Shown here in pieces: positions 19,601 through 64,000 of a stretch of DNA of 64,000 nt (its first letter is position 1; each line of letters starts with the position of its first letter). The DNA comes from Mobula hypostoma (taxonomy: Eukaryota). Made by a program: the position numbers and the translations under genes. The stretch covers positions 46,006,001-46,070,000 of the forward strand of contig NC_086097.1 of assembly GCF_963921235.1 (NCBI RefSeq), in the 5' to 3' direction. The notes beneath the pieces are model-generated. The model searched no databases. It saw only the letters and a program-made list of their open reading frames with translations, and was not told where the DNA came from.

Positions 19601-22600
19601 TCCTCTTTCCTGCAAGATACAGTTTTTTTTGCAAGGGACAAGTGCACCAAACCCCAGTAACATTAGTGTCCAACACCTTTATTTGTAGAAGAAATGTATG
19701 AAGGGGCATGACAAAGGGAGATGCCAATATTTTTATCAACATCAAATTCCCTGTATGTGTCCACATACTTGGCGATAATAAAGGATTCTGATTCTGATAG
19801 TGAAAGAGTTTTGAATAAGAGGCCATGGTTTCAAGGTAAGGGGGCAGTCGTATAAAACTGAGGTGTGTAGAAATTTCTCAAAGGATAGTTGGCAAAATTC
19901 TCTACCCTACAGAGCTGAAGAAGCCAGATCATCAGAGTTATTTAACTTGGAGACAGATATATCTTTGAAAGATTGTGGGAGATTGAGGGCTATGTGGAGG
20001 TAGAACAGAGGAAGAGGTTAGGCCTCAGGCAGGGCAATCATGATTGTATTCAATGGGTGAGCAGGCTTAAAGAACCAGGTGGTCATCTACATTTTTCTTC
20101 TTGTAATCTTGTATTGAACCATGTTGAAGCACGTTCATATGCAGCATGCGCAATTATGTGAGAAGTATTTTAGACTCATTGAATTGAAGATGTGGCACAC
20201 TGCTGGCCATGAACTGCATATCATAGAGTGAAACTGAAGTAATCTGAAGATGCCGGATGATCCCTCTGCTGTGTATAAGGAGTTTGTACGTTCTTCCTGT
20301 GACTGTGTGTGTTTTCTCTAGGTCCTCCGGTTTCCTTCTACAGTCCAAAGATGTACCGGTTGGTAGGTTAATTGGTCATTATAAACTTGATATCCAACAC
20401 CATCTTGGCTGGCCCTCTTTATTAGAGACAGATGGAGCAGGATGCATACAACATATAGCAGCAACACCTTAGGCAGCAGATTCTGAAACTCCCTCCGCAA
20501 AATGCCCTATGAAATTTTTGCAGCTCACTGCTGTTAAATGTGTTGAAAGTTCCTGAAGGCTGAAAGTATACTTATTAATTAAAATACATATTCAATTAAT
20601 ATAGCAACGATCTGAGAAATTGAAGGCACTATTCTGTTTGGATCAGCGACCCCGGCCAGTGACAAGTGGAAAGAGTCTGAGTGGAAGGTCGTCTGCAGTA
20701 GCCCCTCTGACTTCCATGTTTTAATACACAGGCACAAAAATCACAGCTAAGCCGACCCGTGAAGCGAAAGTAGACTGCTGGTCAGAGATGGATGGACACG
20801 TTCCAGCCCATTTAGCAGTGTTAACTACACCTTTTCTGCCTCGGTTTGGTGATGGAATGAAAGTAGGACGTTGGCTTTACCTACTCTGATCTAGCAATAA
20901 TACCAGGCGAAGAATGGGAGTCAAGGAAACCTCCAGCTTCTGTTCTTCATTTTCAAGGTTTCCATAAAGCCCACTCCCCTGTTTGTTTCACCAAGCTTAT
21001 GAATAGCATTTGCAAAGGAATTTGTGCCACCTATGTCTCTTTTGTACTGCACCCTTCCATTTCCCTCAAACTGTATCAGGGCTGACAGTTCTCTATTCTG
21101 CCTTTGGGAGTGCAGGAACTCAACTTAGTTTGAGACACCTGCTAACCAGACCACATTCTCATAAAACTGGACAACATCCACTTCATTTGCTGACCGCTAT
21201 CTTTTGTGATATTGTAAATAATTTCCATCTTGGAGTTTGGTCCCATTTCCTTTCAAAATCAATATTATGAACCTAATTCCACCAAAGTACAATGCATTTG
21301 ATCTCCATTTTCTTTGGGGGGGGGGGAGAGAACTCCAGTACACTATCAGAACTTTTGAGCATATTGTCTCCCAACCCAGATGGCACAACGTCAGAATAGA
21401 GGATTGTCCCTTTAGAACAGATGAGGAAGAACTTCTTTCGCCAGAGGGTGGTGAAGGTGTCAAATTCATTGCGACAGTCACTGGGAATATTTAAAGTGGA
21501 GGTTGCCGGGTTTTTGATTAGTAAAGGTGTCAAAGATTACAGAGAGAAGGTGGGAGAAAGGGGTTTAGAGGGATAATAAATCAGTCATGATGGAATGGTG
21601 GAGCAGACTCAATGGCCCGAATGGCCAAGTTCTGCTCCTATGTCTTGTGGCCTTAACGATTTTCATATAAAATATGTAAAACAAAAGCTTAAAAAATTTT
21701 GTTTGCTAATATGTTCGAAGGGAATGGAAACCTGTGGTGGTCTTCTCCAAATCTGGTCTCCATTGCCAAAAGCAAAAGTCAGTGATTGTATTTCTGTGAC
21801 AGTAATCACAGTTACATTCCTCTCTGGTTTTCATCCAACATCTGACACACTGAACCACTCCACTTTCCTTCAGCATCCTTTTCTGTGTGTGCAGCTAGTG
21901 ATAATGTCATTATTTGGATAGGCTTATTCTCAACATTGCTGCCTTCATCTGTTGTCCTGACTGCAATATTTCCAGTTTGTTGTTTTTTTGTGAACTATCA
22001 GGACTCCACCTTGATGTCCAATCTCCTTAATGCTGCTATGAATAGTGCTGATCGCTTTCGGCTCTCACAGGTGACCAGTACTTGGACCTTATTCTCCAAC
22101 CCCCTATTAACTGCCACTTGCACACCTGCCAGACCTGTCCTCCAAAGAAAGTTTCCTGGAGTGAGAAAATCAGAGGGGATACCAGGCGCTTGGTGAATTA
22201 GATTGGATTCCTGATCGCTATTAACCAATCCTATTGAAAAATCAAGGAAGTACACATGATCTTAAATGGTCGTTTGGATTAAAAGCAAAGTGTCACGACA
22301 TAAAATTCTACACCATCCAAACGGATGACTATTACAATGTATATGAAAAATTTGAGGCGTTAAATTTCAAAATAATTGGTCAGTTTAATAATTGTAGAAG
22401 TGTCCAAGTCAAACAGTAGTAGTAGTAAGAAAGGAACGAAACTCCAATTCAACCACAGAAATAAGAGTTGGATATAAATGAGCTCATTTGGCAAATAATT
22501 AACTTTCAATCCTGCTCAAAATGTATCCAGAAATAACCCCTTCACCCTCCACTACCCCTAACATGACTATTCTTTCAGTTTATGTGGGGAAGGGAAACCC

Positions 22601-30420: not shown

Positions 30421-30766
30421 GGACCAGGAAATTGTTCACAATGTGGAACGGTCGGAAGGGGAGATGAGGCAGAGTGGTCAGCCACGGGCATATTAAAATG
30501 GGGAGCGTGGCTGATGCATTATGGGCTAGATTGGCTACTCTTATTTTCTTGTGTTCCTGTTGTCATTTGCTTCCCTTAACAGACTTCATTCAATCTCCCA
30601 AGACAATTCTTTTTTTATATGAATTGTCAAGGATTTAACTCTGAGTTGAAGGCTACCCCAGGTTGTGGCCGAAGTGTAATGTTAGTATACAGAGTATATT
30701 AAAGGGCTGCCCATTATTGTTACATACTAAAAACTGTTTCTTTACAGCTTTGGGCGGCCATAGGCC

Positions 30767-31029
30767 ATGGCAACAGCAAGAAACATAGAGTCATTGGCAC
30801 CCCCACTTTCCCTGGAATCGTTGGCACAGCAAGCGAATGTAACCCAGGTTCAAGATGGTAGGTTATCATCTATAAGCATTGAACCAGAGGATGGGGGCTT
30901 CAAGGAGAAATTTGTACTGATCGTGGAAAACAAGTACAAGTGTGGACATTGCTGTCTTCCACTCTGTAATCCGAAGCAGACCGAGTGTGGCCACAGATTC
31001 TGTGGAAGCTGTATACAAAAAATTCTTGG
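30767..31029 (+). CDS. TRAF3: TRAF3 coding exon 1 (N-terminus and most of RING)
   Basis: Acceptor tttctttacag ends at 30747, followed by 19 nt of UTR and Kozak GCCATGG. Encodes MATARNIE...GGFKEKFVLIVENKYKCGHCCLPLCNPKQTECGHRFCGSCIQKIL. Donor GG|gtaagt, phase 2. Confidence 0.93.
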
Positions 31030-34000
31030 GTAAGTTCAGTGAGATATTGTGATGTATAGTTTTTAAACTAATCTGAACCACATTGCTGTGTGTGTCTGCT
31101 GATGTAGTAGCTATTTTGATTCATCTGACAAGTTTGGATCTGAGACTTGGTTCACACATCTTCTGTTTAAATTTACTGCCACTCCAGGTTGTTTTGGATT
31201 GCCTAAACTGGTTGCTAAGGTTGCAGCAGGAGCTAACTCAACAAGCAAAAGTGGGAAAGAGAATGGCAGATCGGATTGAACTGCACAATGTGAGGCACTT
31301 TGGGAAGTTAGTACACGCCAGGATGTACACAGTGAATGGCAGGTCCCTGGGAATTGTTGTACAGGGAGATAAATGCATGTTTATTACTTCCCTGAAAATG
31401 GTTGACGGGTTGGTGAGGAAGGGGTATGGCACGCTCACCTTTATCATTTGAAACAATGAGTACAGAAACTTGGATGTGATGTTCTGGTTAGACAAAACAC
31501 TGGTTAGTCTGCACTTGGGAGTATTGTATACACTTCTAGTCACCATTCTACAGGAAAGATCTGAATAAATGAGAGGTGGTGTGTAGATGATTCACAGCTA
31601 TGCTGCTGGATTGGAAGGTTTGAGCTATCAGAGATTGGATAAGTTGGGTCTAACTTTTCCTGGAGCAAAGGAGGCTGAGGGGTGCCATGATAGAGGCACA
31701 TAAAGTTATGAGAGCCATGGAGAACGTAGGTATGCAGAATCTGCTTACCATGGTGGGGGTGTCCATTACTAGAAGGCATTAGTTTAAGGTGCGGGGGAGC
31801 AGGTTTAAAGGAATCTGAGGTGTGTATATGGTGGAGGCAGGAGCAGTAACAACTTTTAAGCAACGTCTGTACGGGCACTTGAATGAGGGCACAGGGAGAT
31901 GTAGAATTAACACAGTCAATTTGGATTGATGCTTCGGGCTGAAGGGCCAGTTTCTATTTCTGAGCACGTTTGATGTCATGTTTCTTTTTAATAACTCACT
32001 TCATGTTTTATGTATCCCTCTGATACATAATTGAAAAAATTGGTACAGTAATGGTAAATAGAAAATGGTAATGTTGATTAAAAAGCTTTGACACCAAAAT
32101 CTTAACTTTATATGGTAAAGACCTGATAATTAGCATGTATTGGAATCGGTAGTAGCTATGAGAAAAAATCGATTCTTTCTGCTTTATTGATCAATACAGA
32201 TTGATAAGTCTTACATCAATATAATTTGATTCTAAACTGTGTTTTCATTTGTTAATTTTGTGGTTATTTTATTTGAATGAAGCCCCAATGTGAAATAAAT
32301 TGGGTTGAACAGTGATGAACAAAATGCAAGATGGTGCCAGCTGAACTCCATAGGGGTGGATGGATCCTGAAACGTGGAGTTGATGGTGTTGGAATTATAT
32401 CTGCAAAATTATTCTCACTATGTGTATTGGATACATTTTAGAAACTAGGAATGGATGTGTATGGTATTACAACTTGTATTGCATTAAGACCAGAAGAGAC
32501 ATTTATAAACATATTGAGCTATGTAATCAAATTGTTTTTACTTTGCTATTGGGATGTAGCTTACTGTGATATATAATATTATGTAATATTTTTTCCAGGA
32601 ATCCAAATTCTGTGTGCCCACTTGATAACGAGCCTTTATATGAGAAAGCGGTAAGCAATTTGGGACGTGTCGTTTTTGAATTTCAATTTTCGTATCTTAA
32701 GAACCATTAAAGTTCTATTTCTTTATTTTCAAAGGTTTTTAAGGACATCTGCTGTAAAAAAGAAATTCTAGCACTTCAAATCTATTGTAGGAATGAAATA
32801 AATGGATGCAAGAAACAGCTACCTCTAGGAAAGCTTGAGGTAATGGATACAACCGAACCCTGTCTGAAACACAATCAGTAGCTCCTGGGTTATTCTGGTG
32901 CATATTTAGATAATTAGTGGACTACAGCATGACTAAGCTTTAACCTGCAAGTTGCAAACTTTTATTGGAATGAACTCTTAATAATTTCCTTTTTTTTAAT
33001 ACAACGTCAATAGTTTTGTCTTTGGAAAGTATATAGAAATCTTACTATTAGGACTTTGAGATCATTTAAAGATTACTATGTGAAAATTAAGAAAATATTT
33101 TAAGTAAAATGATCAAGAAAATGTGACATTTGAACATTGTCTGAAGGTAGTAGTCTGGATGCAAACAGTTGTTTGATTGCTTTCTCTCCTGCAGGCTCAC
33201 TTACATGAATGTCCTTATCAGGAAGTTCGATGTGCTCGCAGGGGATGCACAGAAAAGGTTCAGAGGAAGGATTTAGCTGACCATTTAAATTCAACTTGTA
33301 CATATCGGGAGCAAGCCTGTAAATACTGCAAGAAAAAAATAACGATTGCAGAGTTAAAGGTAAAATGCTCCACAATAAACGTAACCGTGTTTCTTTATGC
33401 AATTACTAAGTTTATGCAAGTTTTCAGAATATCTGGAAGAATGTAAAAAAGGCTGGAGTTATTTGGTATAACCGACAATAGCTTTCATCCTATGGTCACA
33501 CATTGGTCTGTAGTTGGCACTATGAGTTTGTGTCCTTGCTTCTTGCTTTAATTTTTATTAATGATGTCTGCTGTCTTTCTGCAACGTGGGTAGTAAGGGG
33601 ACTCTCATGCATTCTCTTCATTTCCCACACATTCCCTCTCACCCTACCTCCTTTTGCCCAAGGAACATCTGATATTGAGTTCACCTCCACACTAGCTGAC
33701 CTATCTGTTTACCACAGGGACCACGTTCTCATTGACTACCCTAGTACACTCGTCACTTCCCACCCACTCCTCTCCTTACCCTGTGACCACTCCAGCTACC
33801 AAAGGAGGTGCAGTACTTTCCCTTCACCTCCTTCCTCACAACCATCCAAGGATTAAAGAAACATTAAAGGCGAGGCAGCAACTCACATGCACCCTCACCA
33901 ACCTCATTCAGTTTTTGCATTGTGGTCTACCCAACATCAGTAGGATCAAGCAGAACACCTGCAGACTGCCCGTGCAATGTCCTCAATGGACACCTTGACC

Positions 34001-37000
34001 ATGCAGTTTCATATCATTTCCTCCCCCTTTCCCATTCTATCCTTGACATTCTCCGCTCCCAAAGTGATGTCAAACATAAAGTAGAAGAACAGCATTTCAT
34101 AATCTGCTTTTGAGGTCTACAGCAAATTGAGACAAATACTGAATTTTGCAATTTCACATAACCCACCCCCTGAGTATAGTTTCCCACTCCTACAATCCAT
34201 CCAGGTCTTTCTCCCTTCAGGGATTCCCAGCCATCTTTCTACCATGCACCCACATCATTAATAGAGGGGTCCATGAACCCTGGGTTGGGAACCCCTGCAC
34301 ACCCTTTGATTATCTTTACATCCTACTTCTCATTACTCCGGTTCTATCTGCCCGTCACTCACATACAGAACTGTGCAGAAGTCTTAGGCATATGTAAATA
34401 AAAGATAGGTGAAGCAAGGATGCTCTCAAAAATAAAAGTTTCTAAATTATCAGAAAATTTACTATAAAGAGCAGTAAACAGTAAAAAAACTAAATCAAAT
34501 CAAGATTTGGCGTGACCACCCTTTACCTTTAAAACTTCATGAATTCTCCTTGGTACACTGTCGTGCAGTTTTATAAGAAAATCAGCTGGTAGGTTGTTTG
34601 AAGCACCTTGGAGACTTGCCACAGTTCTTCTGCAGACTTTGGCTGTCTCACTTGCTTCTGTCTTTCCAGATAATCCCAGACAGCCCTGAAGATGTTGAGT
34701 TCAGGGCTGTGTGGAGGCCTTACTGTCTAAAAATCTAGCGTGCCTAAGACCTTTGCACAGTATTGCACCCATCTTCTTGGGTTTCTGCAACCTTGGTCCA
34801 TCTTTTCTCTTCCTGTCCCCTCTCCAGTCTGGTTCTGTCTGCCCTTTATCTGGGTTCTAGCTATCACTATTATTCATCAGCCTTTTGTTCTTCAAGAGCG
34901 GCAATTAAAAATCAAAAATGCTGGACAGCTGGACACACTCAAATGACCAGGTAGCATCAGTGGCAAGCAAAATGGAGTTATCGTCTCTGTATCAAGTAAC
35001 TTCCATCAGAGTATTCTGATATAGGATCTTCAACCTGAAATGTTAACGTTCTTCTTTCCACTTACTGAGGACTTCCAGCATCTCTTTCACTTTAACACAG
35101 ATGCTGGAAATCTAAAATAATTTTTCTTGTTCTTCAAAACCAGTTGTTAGTGAAGGAAATGCTAATCAAGATAGCATGAATTTAGTCACGTCCAACTATT
35201 GTTTGGTTGAACATGATCAAATATTATCTCTTTTTATTTTTTTTTGTTGATGTTGTTCCTTTCTTTGTGCCTTGTGGCATGTCGTGTGGCATTTTTTGCC
35301 GCTTCCTTGGCAGTTCGTCTTTTTTATGAGGCCGAGTTGCTAGCTTGACGCTTAGCCCAACGCAGATGGAAAGCTTGCAAGGAGCTGGCCGGATTCAAGC
35401 CCAGGACCACTTTGCCTCGAAGTCTGGTGCTGATGCCACTACACCACCGGCTGCCTTTATTTGTTGATGGGATTTCAGCAAAACCAACTAGACTGAAATT
35501 CAAGCAACACACATCAAAGTTGCTGGTGAACGCAGCAGGCCAGACAGCATCTTTAGGAAGAGGTACAGTCGACGTTCGGGCCGAGACCCTTCCTCAGGAC
35601 TAACTGAAAGAAGGGCTAGTAAGACATTTGAAAAATGTGTGTTGCTTGAAATTCCAGCATCTGCAGATTTCCTCGTGTAGACGGAAATTCATTGCCATTC
35701 TCTTTCTGCCTTTAAGTAGTCGGTGTGCAATTTCCTTGAACCACTGCAACCCTTTTGATCCAGGTACTGCCACAGTTCTGTATTTGCAGGATTTTGACAA
35801 GGTAGCCATACGGTAATTTAGATATATTCCAGACCTGTAATGTGCATGACTTGGAAGGGGATCTGTAGTTGTTGATGCCTTCGTGTGCCTGGCCTTCCAG
35901 GCAGTGGAGCTGAAGAGTGGCATTGGTGAGTACATTTTGTAACTGCTTCAACTGCAGTTACGATGTTGACAGAGCGCCTGGCTAACTTTTCTGGAGATTC
36001 ACTCATCCAAGCAGAAGGAGTGCATTCCACCACCCTCCTGATTTGTTTCGTGTGCCTGATGAGAAGCATTTCAGGAACTGGGAGGTGAACCTTCAGTTGT
36101 AGCGACAGTTCGGTTTCTGCTCAATGGTGTTGTATAGCACGTTAAGGAAGACTGAGGGTGACTCAGTTATGTAGCGCGTAGTGCACAGCGCCAGCGACTG
36201 CGACTCCTGTTCAGTTCTGCCACTCTCAGCAGGGAGTTTGCACCTTCTCCCTCCGATCACAGCTCGAAGCCTCCGTTTCCTCCTGCTTTCCAAAGACATA
36301 CTTGCCCGTGGGTCCCGTGGGTGTAACTGGGCAGCACCTGTTTGTTGGGCCAGAAGAGCCTGGTGCCATACTGCATCTCTAAGTTTAAAAAAGCTAATGC
36401 CATTGCAGGTTAGGAGCTGAATTATATCCTCATCTGATAGTCTGCCACCTATATGGTACAGATGCTGCAAGTCCCAAATCGGGATATATCCAATGTGTAG
36501 TGTTTGTGGCACCTAGATACGAGAGGTGTTCTGAATGATACTAAACACTGGTCATCCCATTTCTGACCTTACAGTGAAACAGCTGAATGTGGTCAAGCAC
36601 AGGACCAGCTGCTGACATGATTGTCGAACGACAACTATTTCCTTTATACGGGACGTGACTTCATCCCAAAGAGAAGTCCTCATAAACTTCAACTTTTCTG
36701 GGACCCCCTTGATGCTCGGTCTAGTCAAAGTCTGCCCTAGGTTCAAGGGTGGCCATTTGCACCTTCTCTGTGAGTTTACTCATTGTTTAAGGCTGTAATG
36801 GAATTAGAAGGGAAGTTGTTCTGATTGAACCCAGACATGGCAACAGTAAATGAATTATCGAAAAATGCCAACGAATAGCAGTCAAAGACATGTTAGTCAT
36901 GTTGCTGACTGACCTAATGATATTTTCGGTAATGATGGCCTACCAGGTTTTATATTTGTAGCTGGTTGGTTTAAGAGAGCTATACCATTTGCTTTTCTCT

Positions 37001-40000
37001 GCACTCTCATGCATTCCCAAGGTTGGCCCAAAGGAGAATGCTGAGTGGGAGGAAGTTGCTGTGAGGGATGAAGCGGACTTGAAAGGAAATTACAGTAAAT
37101 GCAGGCCTCGTTACATACTTTTTTCAAAGTCGAAAATACCGGTGATTGAGACTAAACATTTCTGACTGAATCCTTCAGGATATTCCAGGCAATTCTGCAG
37201 ATAGTTTCCATCACTAAGTCAAATGAGCAGCATTAAAAGAATGATTAGTAGAATGATGTGACTGGAATTAAATGGATAGAAATAAGTTTAATTAAGGACA
37301 CACAATCTTCAATTTAGTAACATGTTTTGAGGGGATAATTTTTTTTTCCTTTTTCTTTTATTCTCTTAGAAACATGAAGATTTTGACTGTCCTGCATTCC
37401 CAGTCCTATGCCCTAATAAGTGCAATACTTTTATTCTGAGAGGAGAGGTAAGTTTGTTATCTTTAAGTTTCCTCACAGTACATTAAAAAAATTTGGTTGG
37501 TAGACCGCTGTTTACGTATTGAATTTGTGCAGGGAATGGACTTCGATTGTAAAATATAACATTAAAATTTAATTCTTCTGAAGAAGATAATCATGTATAA
37601 TGTCTCTTCAGACAAATCAGCAAGGTGAAAAACAGAAGTTTGAACCAAATTGTGATTGTTATTTTATTTTGTTTACAACCCAAACATCACTGGCGACGTC
37701 TACATTTATTGCCCTAGGTATAGACGGAACAGTGCTACAGCTGGTAAAGCTGCTTCCTCACCGCTCCGGGTTCAGTCCTGACTTCTGGGGCTGATGAAAA
37801 CTTGGGATGATGAAAATGAGTCAGGGTAGGAATAGTTTTAGAATGGGTGTTTGATAGTCAGTTTGAACTAAGTCGATTGAAGGGCCTGTGTAACGACTGT
37901 ATCCCTCTGACTCTTTGAGATGGTGATGAGCTGCTGAGGCCTTCTGGTGAAGGTTCTCTCAAAATGCTGTTGGGGAGGATGGAATTCCAAGATCTGCATC
38001 CATTGCTGAAGCAGCAGCCTCATATCCGCACATCCGGATAGTGTGGAACAAAAGGAAGGGAGCCTGCAGCTTCCCAAGGACCTGAAGCCTTAGTCCTCCT
38101 CTCTGGTAGAAATTGTGAATTTAGGACGTGTGTATGTGGAAGGCTTCTATTTTGAGCTGTAGAAAGTGCTTTGTTTGAAGAGTTCTGTGCATCAGACCAA
38201 GAAGGCGTGGTCTCTGATCAAACATCTGCTCTTCATGTACGTAGTTGCGAGTTGGATTATGAGTTGTTGAATATGCATGCTGTTGTGTGATGGATTAGGA
38301 ACTTATCTGGTAAAGGACAACAGAGGCACCAAGTACAGAAAAGGAAAGCACTCTTTGTCCTTGGTTCATGTTATGAGAAATTCCGAAAGCTTAACATGGC
38401 AATAGTATAGTTGTAACAAGGAACTGAAGACCTTTTTTAAAAAAATAAGTTTCATGCAAATATTACTGTCATTTAACCCTTGACTATGTCAACAGAGCCA
38501 TGGTACTTTTATCCCCACATTTGCAGGCCGAGCTCTCCCAAAAACATGACAGCAATGCTGTAACATTTGACTCAGTGTGAGTGTAGAGGCTGAGCACAGA
38601 CTTGCCAAGTTCATGCAGGGGCTCTGCCGTCTGAATCTGCTCTGTGTTAGACCCGTGTCCCAAACAGTCTGAACAGAGAGGACTGCTCATGAGAGACAGG
38701 TTAAATATTTGGTTATCCAAATTAAGTGTGATTTAATGTTTCCTGATACTTAAAAAAAAATTTAGTAATTGAAGTATTTATTTTCAATGTTCTGTATTTT
38801 TCAATCTGTTAACGGTGTTTGAATCTTTCTGACTGTGAGTGTAGATGTTTTTGAAGTTGACAGCTTTGAGAGCAAGCAAGGCTGATGTCATCTTTACCAC
38901 CTGTAAAACAAATATTAGTTGGTACCTGGACAGGGCATGTTCTGATCCACTCATGTAGAACAAATGCCTGCACATTGCTTCAGCATTTGAGATCAGATAC
39001 TTTAAAGGCAAAACTCAGGGTTCTGCAAAGGCCAGGTTTGTATGTTCTTAACCTGGTAATAGTATAGTTTATTCATATATCAAACACACATCCACCACTT
39101 CCGCTGACAACTTGTTCAACACTCGATCACTCTCTGAGTGAAGAAGTTCTCCTTAGGTTCCCTTTCAATAGTAGATGGGTCATATTCTGCATGGAGCTTG
39201 GTCACCAGTGGTGTGCCTCAGGGGTCTGTTCCGGGACCCCTACTCTTCGTGATTTTATAAATGACCTGCACAAGTAAGTGGAGAGATGGGTTAGTAAATT
39301 TGCTGATGACACAAAAGGTTGGAGGTGTTGTGGATAGTGTGGAGGGCTGTCAGAGGTTACAGTAGGACATTGATAGGATGCAAAACTGGGCTGAGAAGTG
39401 GCAGCTGGAGTTCAACCCAGATAAGTGTGAGGTGGTTCATTTTGGTGGTCAAATATGATGACAGAATATAGTATTAATGGTAAGTCTCTTGGCGGTATGG
39501 AGAATCAGAGGATCTTGGGGTCGAGTCCATAAGACACTCAAGGCTGCTGCGCAGGTTGACTCTGTGGTTAAGAAGGCATACGGTGCATTGGCCTTCATCC
39601 ACTGTGGGATTGAGTTAAAGAGCCGAGAGGTAATGTTGCAGCTGTATAGGACCCTGGTCAGACCCCACTTGGAGTACTGTGCTCAATTCTGGTCGCCTCA
39701 CTACAGGAAGGATGTGGAAACCATAAAAAGAGTGCAGAGGAGATTTACAAGGATGTTGCCTGGATTGGGGAGCATGCCTTATGAGAATAGGTTGAGCGAA
39801 CTCGGCCTTTTCTCCTTGGAGCGACGGAGGATGAGAGGTGACCTGATAGGGGTGTATAAGATAATGAGAGGCATTGATTGTGTGGAGTCAGAGGCTTTTT
39901 CCCAGGGCTAAAATGGGTAGCACGAGAGAGCACAGTTTTAAGGTGCTTGGAAGTAGGCACAGAGGAGATATCAGGGGTAAGTTTTTTTACACAGAGTGGT

Positions 40001-43000
40001 GAGTGCGTGGAATGGGCTGCTGGCAACATTGGTGGAGGCAGATACAATAGGGTCTTTTAAGAGACTCCTGGACAGGTATATGGAGCTCAGAAAAATAGAG
40101 GGCTATGGGTAACCCTAGGTAATTTCTCAGGTAAGGACATGTTCGGCACAGCTTTATGGACCTAAGGGCCTGTATTGTGCTGTAGGTTTTCTATGTTACA
40201 ATATTTCACCTTTCAGCCTTAACCTCTGAACTCTACTTCTAGTCTCACGCAGCCACAATAGAAAAACATGCATGCATTTACCCTATCTATACCTATCATA
40301 GTTCTGTATAACTAATCTTGCCCTATTTTCCAACACTCCAAGGAATAAAGTCCCAATCTATTTAACCTTTCAATATAACTCAGGACCTCAAGTCCTGGCA
40401 ACATTCTTGTATATTTGCTCCGCACTCTTTCAATCTCATTGGTATCTTTCCAGTAGGTAGGTGACCACACAATAGTCCAAATTTAGCCTCACCAATTGTC
40501 TCGTACAACTTTGGTGACATAACATCAATATGCTTGATTTATGGAGGCAATGTGCCAAAAGCTCTCTTTGTGACCCTATCTACCTGTGACCCTCCCTTAA
40601 CTACTTTGAAGCACTTGACATGTAGGTTGCACTCTGTATCAGTACCTTTCCTTTCTATAAAGAATACCATACCAAGGCAGAAATAAAAATAACTTCCTTT
40701 TCTTTCTCAGTTAAATAACCACCAGTTACAGTGTCTCAATGTGACGATGTCCTGTCCTTTCTCTCAGTATGGATGCAATTACCAGGTTAGTATATTTTAA
40801 TCATTTTATTCCTATTAAAGTTTAGCTATGCTGATAAGTCTAGCTGATCAAATTCTAGCTGTAGAACTTGGAATAATTGGAGACATCTTAAAAGTCAGGG
40901 ATTAGGCAGTTGGATTCTGGCAGTGTTGCAATCTGAAGGTTCTTCGGGTGTCAAGTAGAAGCCTAAAATCTTAGAGTGTAATAAGAACAAAAAATGAAAT
41001 GAAATGATGGCAAGAAACAAAAAGTTGTGGTTGTCCTATACTTAAAAGCCAGCTGAATCCAAAAAGATAACAAGGCGTTCATGATAGCAAATAACCCATG
41101 AAATAGCCAGTTTCAAGTGGCTATGAATCCACTTATTCACAGTGACACCTGTGACACTTGCTGCAGAAAAACTAAGAACCATTGAGGAAAGCCCAGATTC
41201 AGCTATACTACAATTACTGGAAAATTCACTGAACAGTTATATGTATGATTATGTGAATTACATGGGCAATTATACAAAAATCCAAGCAAGCACAAGAGAA
41301 GTTAAACTATGAGAAAAACGCAAACAACAGGAATTCTGCAGATGCTGGAAATTCAAGCAACACACATCAAAGTTGCTGGTGAACGCAGCAGGCCAGGCAG
41401 CATCTCTAGGAAGAGGTACAGTCGACGTTTCAGGCCGAGACCCTTCGTCAGGACTAACTGAAGGAAGAGTGAGTAAGAGATTTGAGAGGGGGAGGGGGAG
41501 ATCCAAAATGATAGGAGAAGACAGGAGGGGGAGGGATGGAGCCAAGAGCTAGACAGGTGATTGGCAAAAGGACCAAGAAAGGATATATGGCTGTGATAGC
41601 GAGTCTGAGTCAAAATGTGGTCGAAAAGTTGAAGAGCCGAAGAAATTACAGATGGGGAGCAGTGAGAGTTGGTTTCACTAAACTCCCCTCGAAGAGAGGA
41701 TCTAAACTTCTTCGGTGTAGGCATCACCGGAAGAGGCTTCGCAGTAGTGAATTTAAAAACGCAAACAACAGGAATTCTGCAGATGCTGGAAATTCAAGCA
41801 ACACACATCAAAGTTGCTGGTGAATGCAGCAGGCCAGGCAGCATCTCTAGGAAGAGGTACAGTCGACGTTTCAGGCCGAGACCCTTCGTCAGGACTAACT
41901 GAAGGAAGAGTGAGTAAGAGATTTGAGAGGGGGAGATCCAAAATGATAGGAGAAGACAGGAGGGGGAGGGATGGAGCCAAGAGCTAGACAGGTGATTGGC
42001 AAAAGGACCAAGAAAGGATATATGGCTGTGATAGCGAGTCTGAGTCAAAATGTGGTCGAAAAGTTGAAGAGCCGAAGAAATTACAGATGGGGAGCAGTGA
42101 GAGTTGGTTTCACTAAACTCCCCTCGAAGAGAGGATCTAAACTTCTTCGGTGTAGGCATCACCGGAAGAGGCTTCGCAGTAGTGAATTTAAAAACGCAAA
42201 CAACAGGAATTCTGCAGATGCTGGAAATTCAAGCAACACACATCAAAGTTGCTGGTGAACGCAGCAGGCCAGGCAGCATTTCTAGGAAGAGGTGCAGTCG
42301 ACGTTTCAGGCCGAGACCCTTTGTGAGGACTAACTGAAGGAAGAGTGGACTATGAGAAAAACAATGATTTTACGCTAAAATCTAAACAGCAGAAAGAAAA
42401 ACCTATAATTTTCATTGTGTTATAGCAATTATAGGCACGATGCAATGTGTAAAATGAAATTCACACTTTTATGAGCTAACCTTGCTTGCTAACTCCAGCT
42501 GAACTTTACATTGTGAAGCTGAATTCAAATGTTTTTCTCTTGTTTCCTTCACCATCATTGAACTTTCTTCTGCTTCGTTCTTGTAGGGAAACAACCAAGA
42601 AATGAAAGTGCATGAAGCTAGTACAATGGCCCAGCATTTAAAATACGTGCTGCTGAAGAACGAACATCTTGAAAAAACGGTAAAGAGTGGAAAAAGTCCA
42701 ATCAAAGTGTTTTGTTTTTAAAGTAAAGGCATTATCCAGCGGGCAAAATGAATAGTGTGCCTAATACATACCTGATCACTTTTATTTTGGGGCGTGTCAG
42801 TGTTCACAAGTTTGAAATTGTTTGGGAGAGACGAGAGATGAGAGAGTTGTTGGGAGAGAAGGGCAAATCTGCAGATTACTCATACAGCTTGCCCAGCAAA
42901 GTGCTTGTGAACCGGTTGTGTGTCTTCATTGTTCTCCAGAGATGAAAGCTGACACCTGTATTAAGATCTTAATGTGTCACTGGCTTTGAATACTGAACTG

Positions 43001-52000: not shown

Positions 52001-55000
52001 GTAAAAACAAGTTCTGTTTTTTCCTTGTATACTCTTCCTCCATTGTACAAAAGTTTGGCAGTGGCGAATATTTTGATCCATTCTGCTTTTATTAAGCTTA
52101 TTTTCTTAGAAATATCAGTGGCTTGGAAGCTGCCCTACTGTGTCACTAACATCCTATTGAAAAGTAATCCTCTCTTTGTAACTGTAGCTGTGACAAGAAG
52201 AATTTATACTGACAGCTACATTCTTTCTCAATCTAGCCATCTAACCTCCATAACTGATCCCTCTTAAAAGAGTTTCCTCATTATGTAAAAGACCTCAATG
52301 GCAATAGTAAGTCGTTCTTTGCGAAATATTAGATAGAATGCAGCAGTATTGTTTAAGTGTATGAAAGTATAAGGTGTCAAACGTTACAATTTCTTCCAGA
52401 GCTGACATTTCATTATGTTTTGTGGAAGGATCTGATTCACACTTGGGTCTTGGCATCGTCTACATATACAGTTGTATGATGCGTGTTGGTGGGCTGTAGT
52501 CTTTCAGTGATGGGCGAGACTCCAATTTAAATCTCACAGCATATAATTCCTTCATGCAGGATGTTCCCAAATTGGTGGCATCAAAAAACTGACTAATAGC
52601 CTTGAGCAGATGTTTAAGGTGTCAGTAAGAGAAGTTTAAGGCCTCAGTGTTGAAGTTCCATCTGTGTGATGGAAATGCCAGATTAGGAACAAAAGAATAA
52701 AGCATTTCCGATTTCATGGAAGTAATTATTGAAGTCAGCAAAAAGTGAAAATATTGAATCTTAATGGTATAATAGTGCTTGCTAGGAGAGATTCCGTGCT
52801 AATTTTTTTTTATTTGCTGCAGGTCTTGGATCTTCAGAACAAGTTGCAAGAAAAGTGTAAAATGGTTGATATCATGTCAGCCCAGATAAGCCACTTGGAG
52901 AAAGAACAAAGTAAATTTGCACAGCTCGCAAGTAAGAACGAAAGTCGACTTGGCCACATGCAGGTAATACCTTTAGGCACAGAGAAGGAATACTTTCGTA
53001 TTTGTAGATCCTTGATTCTTAGTTTTTGATATAATTAATTGTAAAATGTTGAACAATTAGATAAATGAGAATTTGTCCTGAATAGATCAGTTTTCATGTA
53101 ATATGTCCTTTTTGGATTGCAAAAATAATCAATCTGTTAAGGCATTGACAAAAAAAAACCTGTAAGAGTTGAACAATAAAGTAACTGAAAAAAATCGTCT
53201 TGGGGCTTTTAGTCCATGAAGGATGTAGCTGAGGAAAATTCTTACAGAGATGTGAATTATCAGGAAGGTTTGAAAAAATACCAAAATGTGAAAAATAGAT
53301 TGTTACTAGACAACAGGGTGACCCGTTGGGGCACCCTTTGAGAGAAGGGTAGTGCAGTCTCATGTGACCAGAATGAACATTAAATTTTCCTGAATGCTAT
53401 TGGTATCACATTGCTTTGGAAACTGAAGTAGAAAACCCCAGTTTATTAAAGAACGATGCGTAGCAAAGCAAATACAGCTCCTCCTCGTTTAACGAAGGAC
53501 ACTTGATGGCATCATTTCTGGCTTATCTGCCATCCAGGACATCTCAAATGTCCTCTTTCTTTAAGGATCATGGTTTCCCTTCTGCTGTCATCAATGATGC
53601 CCTCACCTGCATCTCCTCCATTTCCCACACTTCGGCCCTCACCCCATCCTCCTGTCACCACAAAAGGGACAGAGTTCCCCTTGTCCTCACCTACCACCCC
53701 ACCAGCCTCCGAATCCAGCACATTATCCTCCGCAACTTCCGCCACCTTCAACAGGACCCCACCAGTAAGCACATCTTTCTCACTCCACCCCTCTCCACTT
53801 TCCACAGGGATCGTTCCCTCCGCGACTCCCTGGTCCATACATCCCTCCCCACGGATCTCCCACCCGGCACTTATCCCTATTTGCATAAGTGCTACACCTG
53901 TCCCTACACCTCCTCTCTCGCCACCATTCAGGGCCCCAAACAGTCCTTCCAGGTGAGGCAACACTTCACTTGTGAGTCTGTTGGGGTCATCTGTTGCATC
54001 CAGTGCTCCCGGTGCGGCCTCCTCTACATCGATGAAACCCGACGCAGATTGGGGGACCGCTTCGTCGAGCGCCTCCGCCACAACAGACAGGATCTCCCGG
54101 TTGCCACCCACTTCAACACCGCTTCATACATACATGGCCTCCTCTACTGCCATGATGAGGCTAAACTCAGGTTGGAGGAGCAACACCTCATATACCGTCT
54201 AGGTAGTCTCCAGCCCCTTGGTATGAACACAGAATTCTCCAACTTCCGGTAATTCCCTCCCCCCCCTTCCCCCATCCCAGTTTCACTCTGCCCCCTCCCC
54301 CAGCTGCCTATCACCTCCCTCATTGTTCCGCCTTCTTCTACTACCCATTGTGTTTTCCCCTATTCCTTCTTCACCTTTCCTGCCTATCCCCTCCCTGCTT
54401 CCTCTCCCCCACTCCTTTATCTTTCCCCTTACTGGTTTTTCACCTGGCACCTACCAGCCTTCTGCTTCCCACCCTCCCCCCACCTCCTTTATAGGGCCTC
54501 TGCCTCCTCCCTCTTCAGTCCTGACTAAGGGTTCCGGCCCGAAACGTTAACTGATCATTTCCGCGGATGCTGCCTGACCTGCTGAGTTCCTCCAGCGTGT
54601 TGTGAGTGTTGCTCTGCCACTCTTGTACCTCTCGTTGTCATTCTGGAGATGTGCAGCCCTTTCATCCCCTGAGTCTTAATCTCTTCTGCCGTTTGTTGCT
54701 TGTCTCTGATCCTGGAGACGTGCATACCTCTCCTCCTCTGTCTCTTCTTCTCTCATCTTTTTTTGTCCTGACTCTTTGATCCTGGAGTTGTGCGGCCCTG
54801 GCCTCATCTGATTCTTGTTCTCTCCCTCTCCTTGCTGCTTCCCGACGAAGTTTGGCATCATCTCTTGACCATAATGTCCCCCTTCCCTTTCCACGTGGCA
54901 TAATTAGGCTGACCATTTTTTTTTACCCTAATGCTGGATAGAAGATACGAAGCAGTAACATCAAAGGATGCTGATTATTCTTGATGATGTGGTTGGCGCT

Positions 55001-57870
55001 GTCCTAAATGGACGTGATATAGTCACCGCTGTCCTTTGACTGCAGCAAAGGGTTTTATGGGTGTCTTGAAGTACGTCATTACAATAAGATTTAATTATCT
55101 CTTATTGATGGGTGGCAGTTAGATCTGTCCCAATCCTGCACATGCTGATGGTGATTAGCAGAATGTGACCCTTCGAAATAGAGCTGCCTTGCCCTTCTGC
55201 TCCAGTAGGTGTTGCTGCTGTGGCTGGCCGTGCGCATGCATCCGGCTGTCGCGTCCCGATTTCCATGAAGGCCGATTGGGTCTCGGGTTAAAAGGGAGCC
55301 TGTTTATTTTGGCAAATGAGCAATTTTAAACGAATATATAACACTGAACTTCGCCTGCATTCTATAAGTTAGTGTATTTTAATTCGATTCAGCCAAAAAA
55401 AAGTGCCGCTGTAATGCACCGTTTGTGCTAATTGGAGGTCACAAACAGACCGACAGACAGAGCATGAAAGTTTTAGTAGTATATAGATTTCAGGTATAAT
55501 TGTACACTAAATTCTGAATAGCCAGAAATAGAGAACAAAGAAATTAAATGTTCATGAAACATTTAAAATCACAGTAAGAGCAGAAAGCAGGGTCAACAGA
55601 GGGCCACGGTGTAGTGGAGTAATGTCTCGGGGTAGGATGTGACTTCAGACGAAATGAAGAATGCTCTCTGTACTTGAACAACCCAGGATATTGCAGTATC
55701 CTTGAAGAAGTGGCTCACTATTGACCCCAGAGAAATATTCACGAGATTTAATGTTTCAAAGTGAGTGTGAAGATAGTGGCATCCTTGGTGTGGAACAGTC
55801 TATAAATTAGATTAAATAGTTCTTACAGACACCAAAGTCAGGAGAAAACTGAAATCCCAGCCTTGTGCATCAGTGCAAGAGTCTCTTTGAACAGTTTCCA
55901 AGGCTCAGTCATCTTCAGTTGCTTTATCACTGACTATTATAATGTTATTAGGAAGAATGTTCACTGATTACACAATCTTCAGTTCCATTTGCAACACCTC
56001 GGTGAATAATGCACTAAGCCCTAAACAACGCTCAGCTATGACTGCAAACACCAGGAATTCTGCAGATGCTGGAAATTCAAGCAACACACATCAAAGTTGC
56101 TGGTGAACGCAGCAGGCCAGGCAGCATCTATAGGAAGAAGCGCAGTCGACGTTTCAGGCCGAGACCCTTCGTCAGGTATGACTGGCAGGTGGCCAGTGGG
56201 ATTGTTGCCAGTTATTCTCTTTTGAGTACATTGTGCTTGTTGGTCGTTGTTGGACCTGCACTCATCACAACCAGTGGAAAATATTCCACCATATCCCTGA
56301 CTTTTGCCTTGTTGAGTGTGGATCGTTCTTGAGGTGTAAGTTGATGTCTGAGGATATCCAACCTCAGTGATCGGTAGTTATCTCCAAGGATATTGATGGT
56401 GGGGGGACTCTGTTGTGATAACAGCATTGAACATCAAGGATAGCTGCTTTTTCCTTTTCTAGCCAATAGTTTACAAATTTTTTTTAATTCAGTGACTGTA
56501 TAATAATTCCCTACTGATGCAATTGCTTCAAGTTATATAATTCTAATAGTTATAATCAATGTGAAAATGCCTCCATTGATATTATTATTTACTTATTTAT
56601 TTCTACATGTGTATTGGACTCTGTATGAACTTTGAGGCCAGCTACGGTAACACTAGCCAGTTAACTATCCAAATTCTGCAGACGCTGCAAGTTCTGGTTC
56701 GCATCCACCCTCGTGCAAATGATTTTCCATTGTTAGCCAACTGTTCTTCACATTTTTTTCTCTTCAATTCATTGAAGCATATCTTGCTCAACAACAGCAG
56801 CTTGTATTCATATAAATTCTTTAATGTAGCAAAATTTTCTAAGCTGCTTCACAGGAGCATTATCGCATAACGTGACGACTGAGCTACTTTAGAAATACGT
56901 TTTATGGAATAATTTAAAAGGAAAAGAGGGGGTAGAGAGGCACTACTTCAAAGCTTAAGGCATTGTTAGCTGTTGATGTAGCTGCCAGTAGTGCATCAAT
57001 TAACTTTGGGTATGTTAAAGAGGTCAGGTGCAGGACTGTGCGTACTCCATGGGATTATAAGGTTGGAGGAGTTTATAGAAAGAGGAAAAGGCAAGGTCGA
57101 AAAGGGATATGAATTAGTCGATGAAAATTTTAAAATCCAAGTAGCACAGGATTGATGATCAGACTAACTTTGAGTACAAAATATGTGATCGAGTTTTGGG
57201 TGATTTCTAAGTTATAGAGGTTAGAATGAGAATGCCCATTTGAAGTAGTCAAATTTAGTACAAAGGCACGGATAAGAATTTCATCAGTGAACAAGCAGAG
57301 TCAAGAGACTGTGTTACTTGTACTGAAATGTGCTGCAGTTTGCATCCTTGATTAGATCCATAATAACTTGCATAGTGGAGAGGGATTTGGGTGAGAAAGG
57401 CTGTATGCTTGCAGAGAATGGCCATGATTAGAAATGGACTTTGGAAGCAGTTCACTTGGGAACTCAGAATCTGTCATTGTGTCTTTCCTGCCCTGCTTTG
57501 CTTATAATAAAAGATTTTACCTTTAGTCTGAAGCTGGCATTGACTTTCTCACATTAGGTCGCCAGGAATGCTTTCCTCCTCACCTGAACATCAGGCATGA
57601 ACCCAGGTCACCTGCTGCTTTGGATATGATGCTACATTGTATTAAATGTATACAAATTTTTATTTTTATTTTTGCAGAAAATGTTGGCCAGTCAGACAGA
57701 TAAGCTGATGAATATTGACCAAACATCACAACAGACATACCAAAGGCAGGAAGAGAGTGCTCGAGATGCCAAAATTCTGAGAGAATCTATAGACCACCTG
57801 CAGACCCGAATTAGACAACTGGAGTTCCCCTACAGAACTGCTGGACCAGGCTCAGGAGCTGCTAGCTTGA
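30767..57870 (+). CDS. TRAF3: TNF receptor-associated factor 3 (TRAF3/TRAF5 family), partial spliced CDS: join(30767..31029,32599..32650,32735..32839,33195..33359,37370..37447,40711..40785,42587..42679,52823..52963,57678..57870); C-terminal MATH exon outside window
   Basis: Nine exons with GT-AG boundaries join into one open frame of 1165 nt (388 codons + 1). It encodes a RING (CGHC..CGHRFCGSC..CPLD), five TRAF-type zinc fingers and a coiled coil. The motifs GGFKEKFV, PKQTECGHRFC and EILALQIYCRNE match TRAF3 as I recall it. Confidence 0.9.
31250..31960 (+). mobile_element. Old CR1 fragment
   Basis: Degenerate CR1 RT C-terminal motifs. Similar decayed pieces at about 21330-21650, 29160-29830, 49270-49580 and 61180-61800. 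Confidence 0.65.
32599..32650 (+). CDS. TRAF3: TRAF3 coding exon 2 (end of RING, 52 nt)
   Basis: ttttccag|G AAT CCA... encodes (G)NPNSVCPLDNEPLYEKA|gtaagc; phase compatible with exon 1. Confidence 0.9.
32735..32839 (+). CDS. TRAF3: TRAF3 coding exon 3 (105 nt)
   Basis: ttttcaaag|VFKDICCKKEILALQIYCRNEINGCKKQLPLGKLE|gtaatg. Confidence 0.93.
33195..33359 (+). CDS. TRAF3: TRAF3 coding exon 4 (zinc fingers, 165 nt)
   Basis: ctcctgcag|AHLHECPYQEVRCARRGCTEKVQRKDLADHLNSTCTYREQACKYCKKKITIAELK|gtaaaa. Confidence 0.93.
34366..34765. mobile_element. Tc1/mariner-type MITE or deletion derivative
   Basis: TIRs CAGAACTGTGCAGAAGTCTTAGGCA and TGCCTAAGACCTTTGCACAGTATTG; TA on the left side. Confidence 0.8.
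35503..35677 (-). mobile_element. Short Penelope-end insertion with inverted tail
   Basis: Same family. TSD TAGAC(T/G)GAAATTCA at 35489-35502 and 35678-35691. The hammerhead has lost one A (GAAC). Confidence 0.75.
37370..37447 (+). CDS. TRAF3: TRAF3 coding exon 5 (zinc finger, 78 nt)
   Basis: Long polypyrimidine tract, then tag|KHEDFDCPAFPVLCPNKCNTFILRGE|gtaagt. Confidence 0.92.
39172..40196 (+). mobile_element. CR1 LINE 3' fragment nested in an older minus-strand CR1 (about 39060-40590)
   Basis: LVRPHLEYCAQFWSPHYRKD..ERRRMRGDLI motifs; the two flanks rejoin as an antisense CR1. Confidence 0.88.
40711..40785 (+). CDS. TRAF3: TRAF3 coding exon 6 (zinc finger, 75 nt)
   Basis: tctttctcag|LNNHQLQCLNVTMSCPFSQYGCNYQ|gttagt. 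Confidence 0.9.
41419..41456 (-). ncRNA. Minimal type I hammerhead ribozyme motif
   Basis: Minus strand reads UAGUC-CUGACGA-A-GGGU(CUCG)GCCU-GAAAC-GUC-GACUG. The core CUGANGA/GAAA/GUC is intact, stem I is UAGUC:GACUG, and a palindromic ACGU replaces stem-loop III. Confidence 0.8.
41860..41897 (-). ncRNA. Minimal type I hammerhead ribozyme motif (second array unit)
   Basis: Identical 38-nt motif to 41419-41456. Confidence 0.8.
42295..42332 (-). ncRNA. Degenerate hammerhead motif (third array unit)
   Basis: Core reads CUCACAA instead of CUGACGA; predicted inactive. Confidence 0.65.
42587..42679 (+). CDS. TRAF3: TRAF3 coding exon 7 (93 nt)
   Basis: ttcttgtag|GNNQEMKVHEASTMAQHLKYVLLKNEHLEKT|gtaaag. 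Confidence 0.9.
43404..44213. mobile_element. Tigger/pogo-like MITE
   Basis: TIRs CCGTGGATTCTGGTTAATT and AATTGACTGGATCCACTG|TA; a partial inverse copy lies near 24845-25290. Confidence 0.7.
44677..44881. mobile_element. Small hAT-like MITE
   Basis: Inverted ends GTTCCCTCTAA and TTAGAGGGAAC; imperfect 8-bp flanks CTTATTGA and GTTATTGC. Confidence 0.55.
46205..46635 (+). mobile_element. CR1 LINE 3' end
   Basis: Highly similar to 39755-40196; TRGHRFKV..FFTQRVV..WNGLP motifs. Confidence 0.88.
52823..52963 (+). CDS. TRAF3: TRAF3 coding exon 8 (coiled coil, 141 nt)
   Basis: tttgctgcag|VLDLQNKLQEKCKMVDIMSAQISHLEKEQSKFAQLASKNESRLGHMQ|gtaata. Confidence 0.88.
53306..55487 (-). mobile_element. Non-autonomous Helitron, interrupted by the Penelope insertion
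   Basis: Minus strand begins A|TCTATATACTACTAAAAC at 55487 and ends with hairpin AGGGTGCCCCAACGGGTCACCCT plus GTTGTCTAG|T at 53306. ORF remnants MPRGKGRG.. and ETEEERYARLQDQR resemble Helitron N-terminal repeats. Confidence 0.72.
53533..54612 (+). mobile_element. 5'-truncated Penelope-like element with GIY-YIG endonuclease region
   Basis: ORF 53503-54252 contains RVPLVLTYHP, FTCESVGVICCIQCSRCGLLYIDETRRRLGDRF and EQHLIYRLGSLQPLGMN. TSD TCTGCCA at 53526-53532 and 54613-54619. Mutated hammerhead (CUGACUA) near 54516-54553. Confidence 0.9.
56045..56176 (-). mobile_element. Short Penelope-end insertion truncated at the hammerhead
   Basis: Same family. TSD TATGACTG at 56037-56044 and 56177-56184. 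The core CUGACGA..GAAACGUC (56143-56176) is intact, but the 5' strand of stem I is replaced by flank. Confidence 0.78.
57678..57870 (+). CDS. TRAF3: TRAF3 coding exon 9 (coiled coil, 193 nt)
   Basis: tttttgcag|KMLASQTDKLMNIDQ...IDHLQTRIRQLEFPYRTAGPGSGAASL+A|gtaagt; ends in phase 1, as expected before the terminal MATH exon. Confidence 0.87.
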
Positions 57871-63177: not shown

Positions 63178-64000
63178 CAAACCCCATTTCCAGAAAAGTT
63201 GAGATATTTTCCAAAATGCAATAAAAACAAAAATCTGTGATATGTCAATTCACGCGAACCTTTATTTATCAGACAAAAGTACAAAGAAAAGATTTTCAAT
63301 AGTTTTACTGACCAACTTAATTGTATTTTGTAAACATACACAAATTTAGAATTTGATGGCTGTAACACACTCAACAAAAGTTGGGATAGAGGCATGTTTA
63401 CCATTGTGTTACATCACCTTTCCTTTTAGTAACACTTTTTAATCGTTTTGGAACTGAGGATACTAATTGTAGTAGATTTGCAATTGGAAATTTTGTCCAT
63501 TCTTGCTTGATATAAGACTTCAGCTGCTCAACAGTCCATGGTCTCCGTTGTCTGATTCTCCTCTTCATGATGCGCCATACATTATCAATAGGAGATAGAT
63601 CTGGACTGGCAGCAGGCCAGTCAAGCACACGCACTCTGTGTCTACAAAGCCACGCTGTTGTAGCCCGTGCAGAATGTGGTCTGGCATTGTCCTGCTGAAA
63701 TAAGCATGGACGTCCCAGGAAGAGGCGTCGCCTGATGGCACCATATGTCTCTCTAAAATCCTAATATACGCCTCAGAGTCAATGGTACCTTCACATACAT
63801 GCAACTCACCCAGGCCGTGGGCACTGATGCACCCCCATACCATCACAGATGCTGGCTTTTGCACCTTTCGCTGATAACAATCTGGATGGTCGTTTTCATC
63901 TTTGGCACGGAGAACTCGACGCCAGTTTTTTCTGGAAAACTAGCTGAAATGTGGACTCATCTGACCACAGCACAGAGTTCCACAGTCTTTCGGTCCATCT
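63178..64000 (-). mobile_element. Tc1-family DNA transposon, frameshifted transposase, runs off window
   Basis: TA followed by TIR CAAACCCCATTTCCAGAAAAGTTG, with inner direct repeat AAAAGTTGGGATA near 63376. Transposase motifs [22 protein letters not shown] and [15 protein letters not shown]. Confidence 0.93.

Follow-up and report, generated by a model that had tools for sequence, protein, structure and literature searches.

We describe a short tandem array in a 64,000-nucleotide stretch of the Mobula hypostoma genome (assembly GCF_963921235.1, contig NC_086097.1, forward-strand positions 46,006,001 to 46,070,000), hereafter the window, whose own numbering is used throughout. The array is probably a non-autonomous, internally deleted copy of a very abundant, endonuclease-bearing Penelope-like element (PLE), which would have entered the genome as an insertion of 1.36 units and been duplicated later; that the second step was an unequal recombination is a roughly even call. 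A first-pass annotation of the same DNA had proposed a different origin, namely a retrozyme-like multimer of hammerhead-bearing units, reverse transcribed from a circular RNA and inserted in one event.

A single insertion made of 2.4 head-to-tail units

Tandem Repeats Finder reported one array only, at 41314-42347 (1,034 bp; period 435, 2.4 copies, 97% matches, score 1983), with a G+C content of 0.48 against 0.41 for the whole window. Direct alignment of the units placed their borders at 41314-41754 (unit 1, 441 bp), 41755-42189 (unit 2, 435 bp) and 42190-42347 (partial unit 3, 158 bp of tail). All three lie on the minus strand, which is the sense strand of the element, so unit 1 is the 3'-most and unit 3 is the truncated 5' end of the insertion. 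Positions within the unit (q) are numbered along the plus strand of unit 2.

Units 1 and 2 are nearly identical: in 435 bp they differ by a single substitution (C>T in unit 2 at 41825, a CpG transition) and by a 6-bp indel, the bases at 41486-41491 of unit 1 being deleted in unit 2. Unit 3 differs from both by 4-5 substitutions in only 158 bp, with private changes at 42280, 42294, 42322 and 42325.

The array is bounded by two 14-bp target-site duplications, ACTATGAGAAAAAC, at 41306-41319 and 42349-42362, which are identical at 14 of 14 positions and A or T at 10 of them. The last six bases of the left copy, AAAAAC, are also the terminal six bases of the element (the first six of the unit), so the target-site duplication overlaps the element end by a 6-base microhomology, and the plus-strand end freed by the nick could have annealed to the template through these shared bases before being extended. 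The array is a retro-insertion: it has a target-site duplication, it is cut short on its 5' side, and its 3' end belongs to the longer of two PLE end classes (see below). The earlier description of about 2.35 head-to-tail units of 441 and 435 bp within a perfect 14-bp duplication thus agrees with both the repeat finder and the alignment.

Each unit joins the two ends of a Penelope-like element

The two parts of the unit behave differently in sequence searches. Within the window, positions q~7-181 recur at ten other places and q182-435 at none. Against the 3.48-Gb assembly, 40 of 2,440 candidates for the whole unit were scored and gave 65 matching pieces of 78-93% identity. Among the genomic loci fetched for comparison (denoted L with a number), L043 is a near-full-length parent, with a 969-aa open frame that contains reverse transcriptase (RT) motifs and a C-terminus of what we take, by eye, to be the GIY-YIG type. 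The C-terminus of this open reading frame (ORF) drew 130,315 first-look candidates from the genome, and all 150 that were scored were significant. Positions q3-252 of the unit match the reverse strand of L043 (4373-4634) at 91%. In L043 the distance from the stop codon is about 175 bp to the start of this tail and about 300 bp to the hammerhead, which is on the same strand as the ORF; a partial upstream copy of the tail (q117-10) stands ahead of the ORF.

The remainder of the unit, q254-435, comes from the other end of the element. This 5' module has 1,818 candidates in the genome, of which the 40 that were scored are 97-100% identical to it, and it forms the extreme 5' end of the full-length copies at all 28 fetched loci (97-98% identity). 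At none of these 28 loci is the module joined to a tail on the side of the deletion junction (q254); an upstream tail copy precedes it at 27. At L047 the module and the RT share one open frame, with about 190 bases between them, and the first 182 bp hold an apparent ORF start. Taken together, the tail and module matches to full-length PLEs show that each unit consists of the first 182 bp of the PLE fused to its last 252 bp, the hammerhead-bearing 3' tail or pLTR, with about 3.3 kb of ORF deleted; in unit 1 the tail occupies 41314-41571 and the module 41573-41754. Accordingly, the name mini-Penelope given in the first-pass annotation is correct, the tail matching L043 and the module matching full-length 5' ends. 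In the array frames of at least 62 aa no Pfam match was found, and a unit of only 435-441 bp has no RT or endonuclease ORF of its own.

One fetched locus, L011, had seemed to place the ORF on the opposite strand, since a GIY-YIG-like frame lies beside its tail. We rejected this orientation: L011 is a head-to-head mosaic, and the orientation was fixed by L043 and L047. The same locus carries, on the minus strand at 1908-2186, an open frame beside a mini-PLE that resembles the C-terminus of another retroelement ORF.

The ends of related copies are also those of a PLE. In the window and the fetched loci together, the 3' ends of 124 tail copies fall into two classes, with 79 at q1-11 and 28 at q40-52, and the array ends in the long one. 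These classes match the optional 30-40-bp "tail" of a PLE from Anolis, for which two internal initiation sites are described (PMC11167929). Of 21 inserts examined, 6 have direct repeats of 6-14 bp immediately at both ends; in 3 more, repeats of 6-7 bp lie near the BLAST-defined ends, and 12 have none. The 5' ends of the mini copies are variable and lie inside a further unit.

The hammerheads are of the minimal type

On the minus strand, the pattern CTGACGA-N13-GAAACGTCGAC occurs without mismatch at 41451-41421 and 41892-41862, at the heart of two minimal hammerhead motifs with intact cores (motif 1, 41419-41456; motif 2, 41860-41897). In a third motif (42295-42332, pattern at 42327-42297) the core reads CTCACAA, with two core positions changed. 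With up to two mismatches allowed, the pattern is found 7 times in the window, where chance would give 0.01. The motif scan therefore agrees with the first-pass count of three minus-strand minimal hammerheads, two intact and one mutated. The cleavage positions it predicted, after C41865 (between 41865 and 41864) and after C41424 (between 41424 and 41423), and the 441-nt interval between them, likewise follow from the sequence. Two intact hammerheads 441 nt apart and antisense to the host gene constitute a retrozyme architecture. In a minus-strand transcript, if one is made, pairing of the two motifs by way of their ACGU palindromes could lead to cleavage and set free an RNA of 441 nt.

As RNA, the motif of these two units (CUGACGA-N13-GAAACGUC) has a palindromic ACGU centre and no helix III loop. 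Helix I is open and has 5 bp (UAGUC/GACUG, with one U.G pair), and helix II (GGGU/GCCU around a CUCG loop) follows an unpaired A. On these features the hammerhead is of the minimal PLE type. In minimal PLE hammerheads the core is conserved (CUGANGA ... GAAA ... UH), helix I is 4-5 bp long and helix II follows an unpaired base, and they are described as cleaving poorly in vitro and only as dimers (Cervera & De la Pena 2014, PMC4209133); they are treated further by Frangieh et al. 2024 (PMC11167929) and are set apart as a PLE/Terminon type in the work on retrozymes (Cervera & De la Pena 2020, PMC7229834). The contacts between loops 1 and 2 that mark a canonical type I hammerhead in PMC7229834 are absent from the motif, with its open 5-bp helix I and no helix III loop.

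Helices I and II both appear in the minimum-energy fold of a 48-nt segment (-12.2 kcal/mol). The isolated 56-nt hammerhead segment folds no better than its shuffles (z = 0.09); the ACGU palindrome can pair only between two copies of the motif, and the dimeric fold is a pseudoknot. Of 99 hammerhead copies sampled from the family, 31 are identical to the array motif and 81 have an intact core, with variation mostly at CpG sites. Where helix II closes, 71 copies have G.U and 26 have G-C; at the last pair of helix I, 85 have U.G and 8 have C-G. All these helix-pair changes are one-sided, with no two-sided change among the 99 copies, which lends the pairing weak support.

Rfam returned no match at the gathering score over the whole window, and thus no hammerhead. 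At E<=10 over 41200-42500 it gave eight matches, none of them a hammerhead; these weak hits (CRISPR-DR32, PrrB_RsmZ and fragments of long non-coding RNAs) were set aside as chance. The Rfam check suggested in the first-pass annotation was therefore negative. The Rfam hammerhead models describe forms with a helix III hairpin, and such a miss is expected.

In 70 of the 124 tail copies the 5' end falls inside the tail: 2 of these ends are at the cleavage site (q109-110), 12 at q141-148 and 8 at q168-175. With so few ends at q109-110, there is no sign of frequent cleavage before reverse transcription. The cluster at q141-148 could mark a transcription start of the element or an RT stop. It coincides with the 5' edge of helix I and is represented in the window at 3887-4022, 54517-54584 and 56044-56184, and at L046, L052, L057 and L060. 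In a single case (L018, 1501-2011) a mini-PLE insertion, with the 6-bp target-site duplication TGTGGA, starts exactly after the predicted cleavage site.

The deletion junction is an orphan of a recurrent design

The two deletion junctions of the array, at 41570-41574 in unit 1 (GGCAAAAGG-A-CCAAG) and 42005-42009 in unit 2, both on the minus strand, are identical and join the PLE tail to about base 182 of the PLE 5' end. The 35-nt sequence across the GGCAAAAGGACCAAG junction occurs exactly in the 3.48-Gb assembly only at the two units of the array. With 1-2 mismatches allowed it occurs at four loci including this one, the others being L004 (three units), L015 and L020, whose junctions each differ from that of the array by 1 base in 35. 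We considered descent of the array from the lineage of these three loci, and diagnostic sites ruled it out: at q379, q383 and q395 the array and all 28 full-length copies read G/C/G where L004, L015 and L020 read A/T/A, and at least 8 polymorphic tail sites also differ, with no private state shared.

A whole-genome search with a gapped pattern, anchored to either side of the junction, found 20 mini units; they lie at 16 loci and show 15 different junction strings, of which just one is common to two loci, and no locus has more than two direct units. These counts are lower bounds, as exact anchors miss diverged copies. So many junctions among so few loci point to minis forming recurrently, with a lineage reaching a few copies at most. 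The junction of the array itself is, within the assembly, an orphan. The first-pass annotation had held that a junction unique to this locus would speak for a local tandem duplication over a mobile family. That outcome has come true in part: the exact junction is unique to the locus, and its three near relatives differ from the array at the diagnostic sites.

Comparison of the 5' module region with the beginning of the tail gave neither homology nor complementarity that might explain a hotspot: the best local alignment covered 19 columns, and the duplex energy fell in the range given by shuffled sequences. An origin of the deletion by splicing was excluded by eye, the deleted segment lacking GT...AG borders. 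On the module side certain breakpoints recur, with AGGCACGTT at four loci, CCAAG in three junction types and GGCTGTG in three; across the 16 loci they are paired with differing tail-side breakpoints, as if preferred acceptor sites for the skip existed. At L027 (1137-1500) the junction keeps 55 more PLE 5' bases than the array unit, an independent and longer deletion derivative.

Origin of the 2.4 units

The distribution of differences between the units leads us to favour a two-step origin. Four of the five inter-unit substitutions fall in unit 3, that is, in 15% of the comparable sites (p ~0.003, binomial calculation). Moreover, skipping de novo cannot yield the same junction twice within one complementary DNA (cDNA), so either a mini RNA served as template, its progenitor missing from the assembly, or one unit was duplicated as DNA. 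Mechanistically, the PLE RT would have been primed on the nicked plus strand, aided by the 6-base microhomology. After copying the tail it would have jumped over about 3.3 kb, resumed at the 5' module, continued into an upstream tail copy and ended there after 158 bp, leaving an insertion of 1.36 units. Recombining unequally, the two direct repeats of 158 bp in this insertion would in turn have doubled one 435-bp unit, giving 158 + 435 + 435 bp, the 2.4 units now seen. The concentration of substitutions in unit 3 fits such an insertion followed by duplication better than rolling-circle copying.

Several observations weigh against this two-step origin. The G at 42294 (q105) in unit 3 is the common alternative allele of the family, present in 39 of 88 copies, so unit 3 may come from another template, and the substitutions then say less about timing. 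All four unit-3 differences lie on the branch of unit 3 itself (4:0, one-sided p ~0.06), where later duplication would divide them evenly over the two branches, so that the fit is only moderate. Two head-to-head composites, L004 (1501-2663) and L003 (715-1941), each carry two direct copies and one inverted copy within one target-site duplication of 13 or 14 bp. Their units have diverged about equally within each locus (0.5-1.2% in L004, 1.2-2.1% in L003), which dates the structure to the insertion: multi-unit mini cDNAs do arise, and the array could be one. The near-identity of the array junction to those of L004, L015 and L020 is unexplained if their origins are independent. The clustering of junctions may in part be ascertainment, as the searches for other minis were seeded from the array unit, and a progenitor with the array junction could be missing from the assembly. 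We also note that the inverted part of L003 and L004 resembles snap-back copying. L081 was tried as a source of unit 3, with which it shares 55 of 56 bases, and was dropped because it is a solo tail fragment of 161 bp.

The retrozyme cycle put forward in the first-pass annotation would make the array in one event: a minus-strand transcript is cut by paired hammerheads, the released RNA forms a circle of ~435-441 nt, and the PLE RT copies it by rolling circle into a single insertion. Such a cycle would account for two complete units with identical junctions and a canonical unit boundary inside one target-site duplication, and the equally diverged multi-unit insertions at L003 and L004 are in keeping with it. 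Two intact minimal hammerheads in tandem are what the dimeric form needs (PMC4209133). A run of at least two consecutive units, each with a complete canonical or minimal hammerhead, is also what section 5 of a recent preprint (10.64898/2026.07.22.740005) operationally defines as an active non-LTR retrozyme, and the array has it. Rolling-circle copying would, however, predict a homogeneous array, and unit 3, with four private substitutions in 158 bp (one of them the common allele) against one in 435 bp, does not come from the same template as the others. A progenitor with the array junction is absent from the assembly, no array of more than two direct units exists among the 16 loci, and tail copies start at the cleavage site far less often than at q141-148. 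The 441-nt RNA is only mildly self-paired (z = -1.84; 2 of 100 shuffles fold as well), and minimal hammerheads cleave little in vitro (PMC4209133). For a PLE, uncut RNA is reported as the main template, and no reads ended at the hammerhead site (PMC11167929). The tandem of intact hammerheads and its fit to the operational definition thus stand, but the unique junction, the heterogeneous units and the missing pile-up at the cleavage site count against the cycle itself, and the claim that rolling-circle reverse transcription left the multimer is weakened. We consider this origin unlikely.

A single event would not need a circle. The template could have been a linear multimer, such as the read-through transcript of a progenitor with minis in tandem, or the RT could have switched successively between PLE RNAs, with unit 3 taken from another PLE copy. 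PLEs normally lie in tandems or partial tandems and are transcribed as such (PMC11167929), and an upstream tail copy is present at all but one of the 28 full-length loci. The alternative allele at q105 is what another template would bring, and L003 and L004 show multi-unit structure at insertion. On the other hand, the assembly holds no tandem progenitor with the array junction, and the same imprecise skip is hardly to be expected twice in one cDNA where 16 loci show 15 junctions; this explanation, too, strikes us as rather improbable. We give very little credence to an assembly artefact in which repeat mis-assembly expanded a 1.4-unit insertion. Contigs from four public runs of unstated library type cover parts of the repeat at very different depths, and these short contigs never span the whole array, which leaves its copy number without independent support. 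Nevertheless, units 1 and 2 differ by a substitution and a 6-bp indel that a simple assembly duplication would not create, and the left junction between flank and element is confirmed by one contig (run X1, record 1) with 2 mismatches in 144 bases. The insertion of 1.36 units followed by duplication remains the account we prefer.

Host gene context

Judged by the exons recognised upstream, the array lies inside a TRAF2/3/5-type gene and antisense to it. These exons span 30764-40797 on the plus strand: a TRAF2/3/5 RING domain matches within 30764-31030 (E = 2.7e-11) and a TRAF zinc finger at 33177-33443 (E = 1.2e-12), and the zinc finger is matched again, less strongly, at 37370-37483 and 40693-40797. 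A MATH exon was absent from the frames scanned, namely those of at least 62 aa in the whole window and those of 30-61 aa on the plus strand from 33400 to ~54900. The earlier placement in a TRAF3 intron is thus borne out as to the gene type, by the RING and zinc-finger exons, and TRAF3 as the paralogue is putative.

At 42540-42720 on the plus strand, a pyrimidine tract and AG are followed by an open frame, about 225 bp past the array, that could be the next TRAF exon; it has no Pfam match. The minus strand of the window also holds fragments of other mobile elements, namely a piece of a DDE_3 transposase (63401-63760, E = 4.4e-10) and two weak RVT_1 pieces (7080-7301 and 19463-19678).

Comparison with known systems

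The closest relatives of the array are the endonuclease-bearing PLEs of the Penelope/Poseidon/Neptune type (PMC4209133, PMC11167929). It shares with them the 3' tail, the 5' end, the partial tandem arrangement and the 5' truncation, together with a minimal hammerhead in which helix I is short, helix III lacks a loop and helix II follows an unpaired base. Also alike are the variable target-site duplication at an AT-rich site and the two classes of 3' end about 40 bp apart. Unlike a PLE, the array lacks about 3.3 kb including the RT and endonuclease and cannot move alone, and it contains two complete short units, an arrangement absent from the 25 other mini loci examined.

Metazoan non-LTR retrozymes are described as having canonical type I hammerheads in units of 150-450 bp that stand in tandem and give rise to circular RNAs, with PLEs suggested as their mobilisers (PMC7229834). 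The 2026 preprint of Li, Clavereau & Pollet (10.64898/2026.07.22.740005) treats retrozymes as non-autonomous PLE derivatives and reports them in 20 of 31 vertebrates including its one chondrichthyan. The array resembles the retrozymes of these two sources in its short, non-coding tandem units with a type I hammerhead, its target-site duplication of more than 4 bp, the presence of an autonomous PLE in the same genome and the relation of the unit to the terminal repeat of that PLE, besides falling under the 2026 definition. It departs from them in having the minimal PLE form of the hammerhead, without canonical loop-loop contacts, and in a unit that keeps the PLE 5' end with its apparent ORF start; circle formation is here a prediction. 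Other traits of retrozymes are linear and circular RNA of monomer size, a low G+C content and a monomer RNA that is highly self-paired; for the array, G+C is 0.48 and the monomer fold has z = -1.84. It also forms no long arrays, and its lineage occupies one locus, or at most four, where retrozymes count hundreds to thousands. A multi-copy family running from dimers to long multimers is not what the anchored searches found in the assembly: the exact junction is present at one locus, and at four once up to 2 mismatches are allowed.

Internally deleted, non-autonomous derivatives of retroelements in general keep both ends, lose the middle and need the enzymes of the parent to move. The minis differ from this pattern in that their junctions vary from locus to locus, pointing to recurrent formation and not to one successful deleted master. 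The first-pass annotation was aware of no such family in cartilaginous fish, a statement that the chondrichthyan of the 2026 preprint has overtaken; our literature search on retrozymes and PLE hammerheads in cartilaginous fish found nothing besides this preprint.

Discussion

The array seems to be a member of an already described kind, and a one-off by-product, not a spreading family of ribozyme circles. A bolder possibility, which we hold to be unlikely, is that this genome may show retrozymes being born. The PLE RT would recurrently omit everything between the 3' tail and the element's first ~180-240 bases, some minis (L003, L004 and perhaps the array) would have been copied as multimers from circular RNA made by the hammerheads, and the array would be a young, still competent proto-retrozyme.

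For the host, the array is an insertion of the ordinary intronic sort and lies antisense to a TRAF-family gene. For the elements themselves, the array offers a base-by-base example of how a retrozyme-like unit can arise from an autonomous PLE, by the joining of its 5' end to its hammerhead-bearing 3' tail; in the 2026 preprint (10.64898/2026.07.22.740005), the PLE origin of retrozymes is inferred only from similarity to terminal repeats. With so many different junctions, such units would seem to form repeatedly and rarely spread, which bears on whether animal retrozymes need more than the ends of a PLE to take off.

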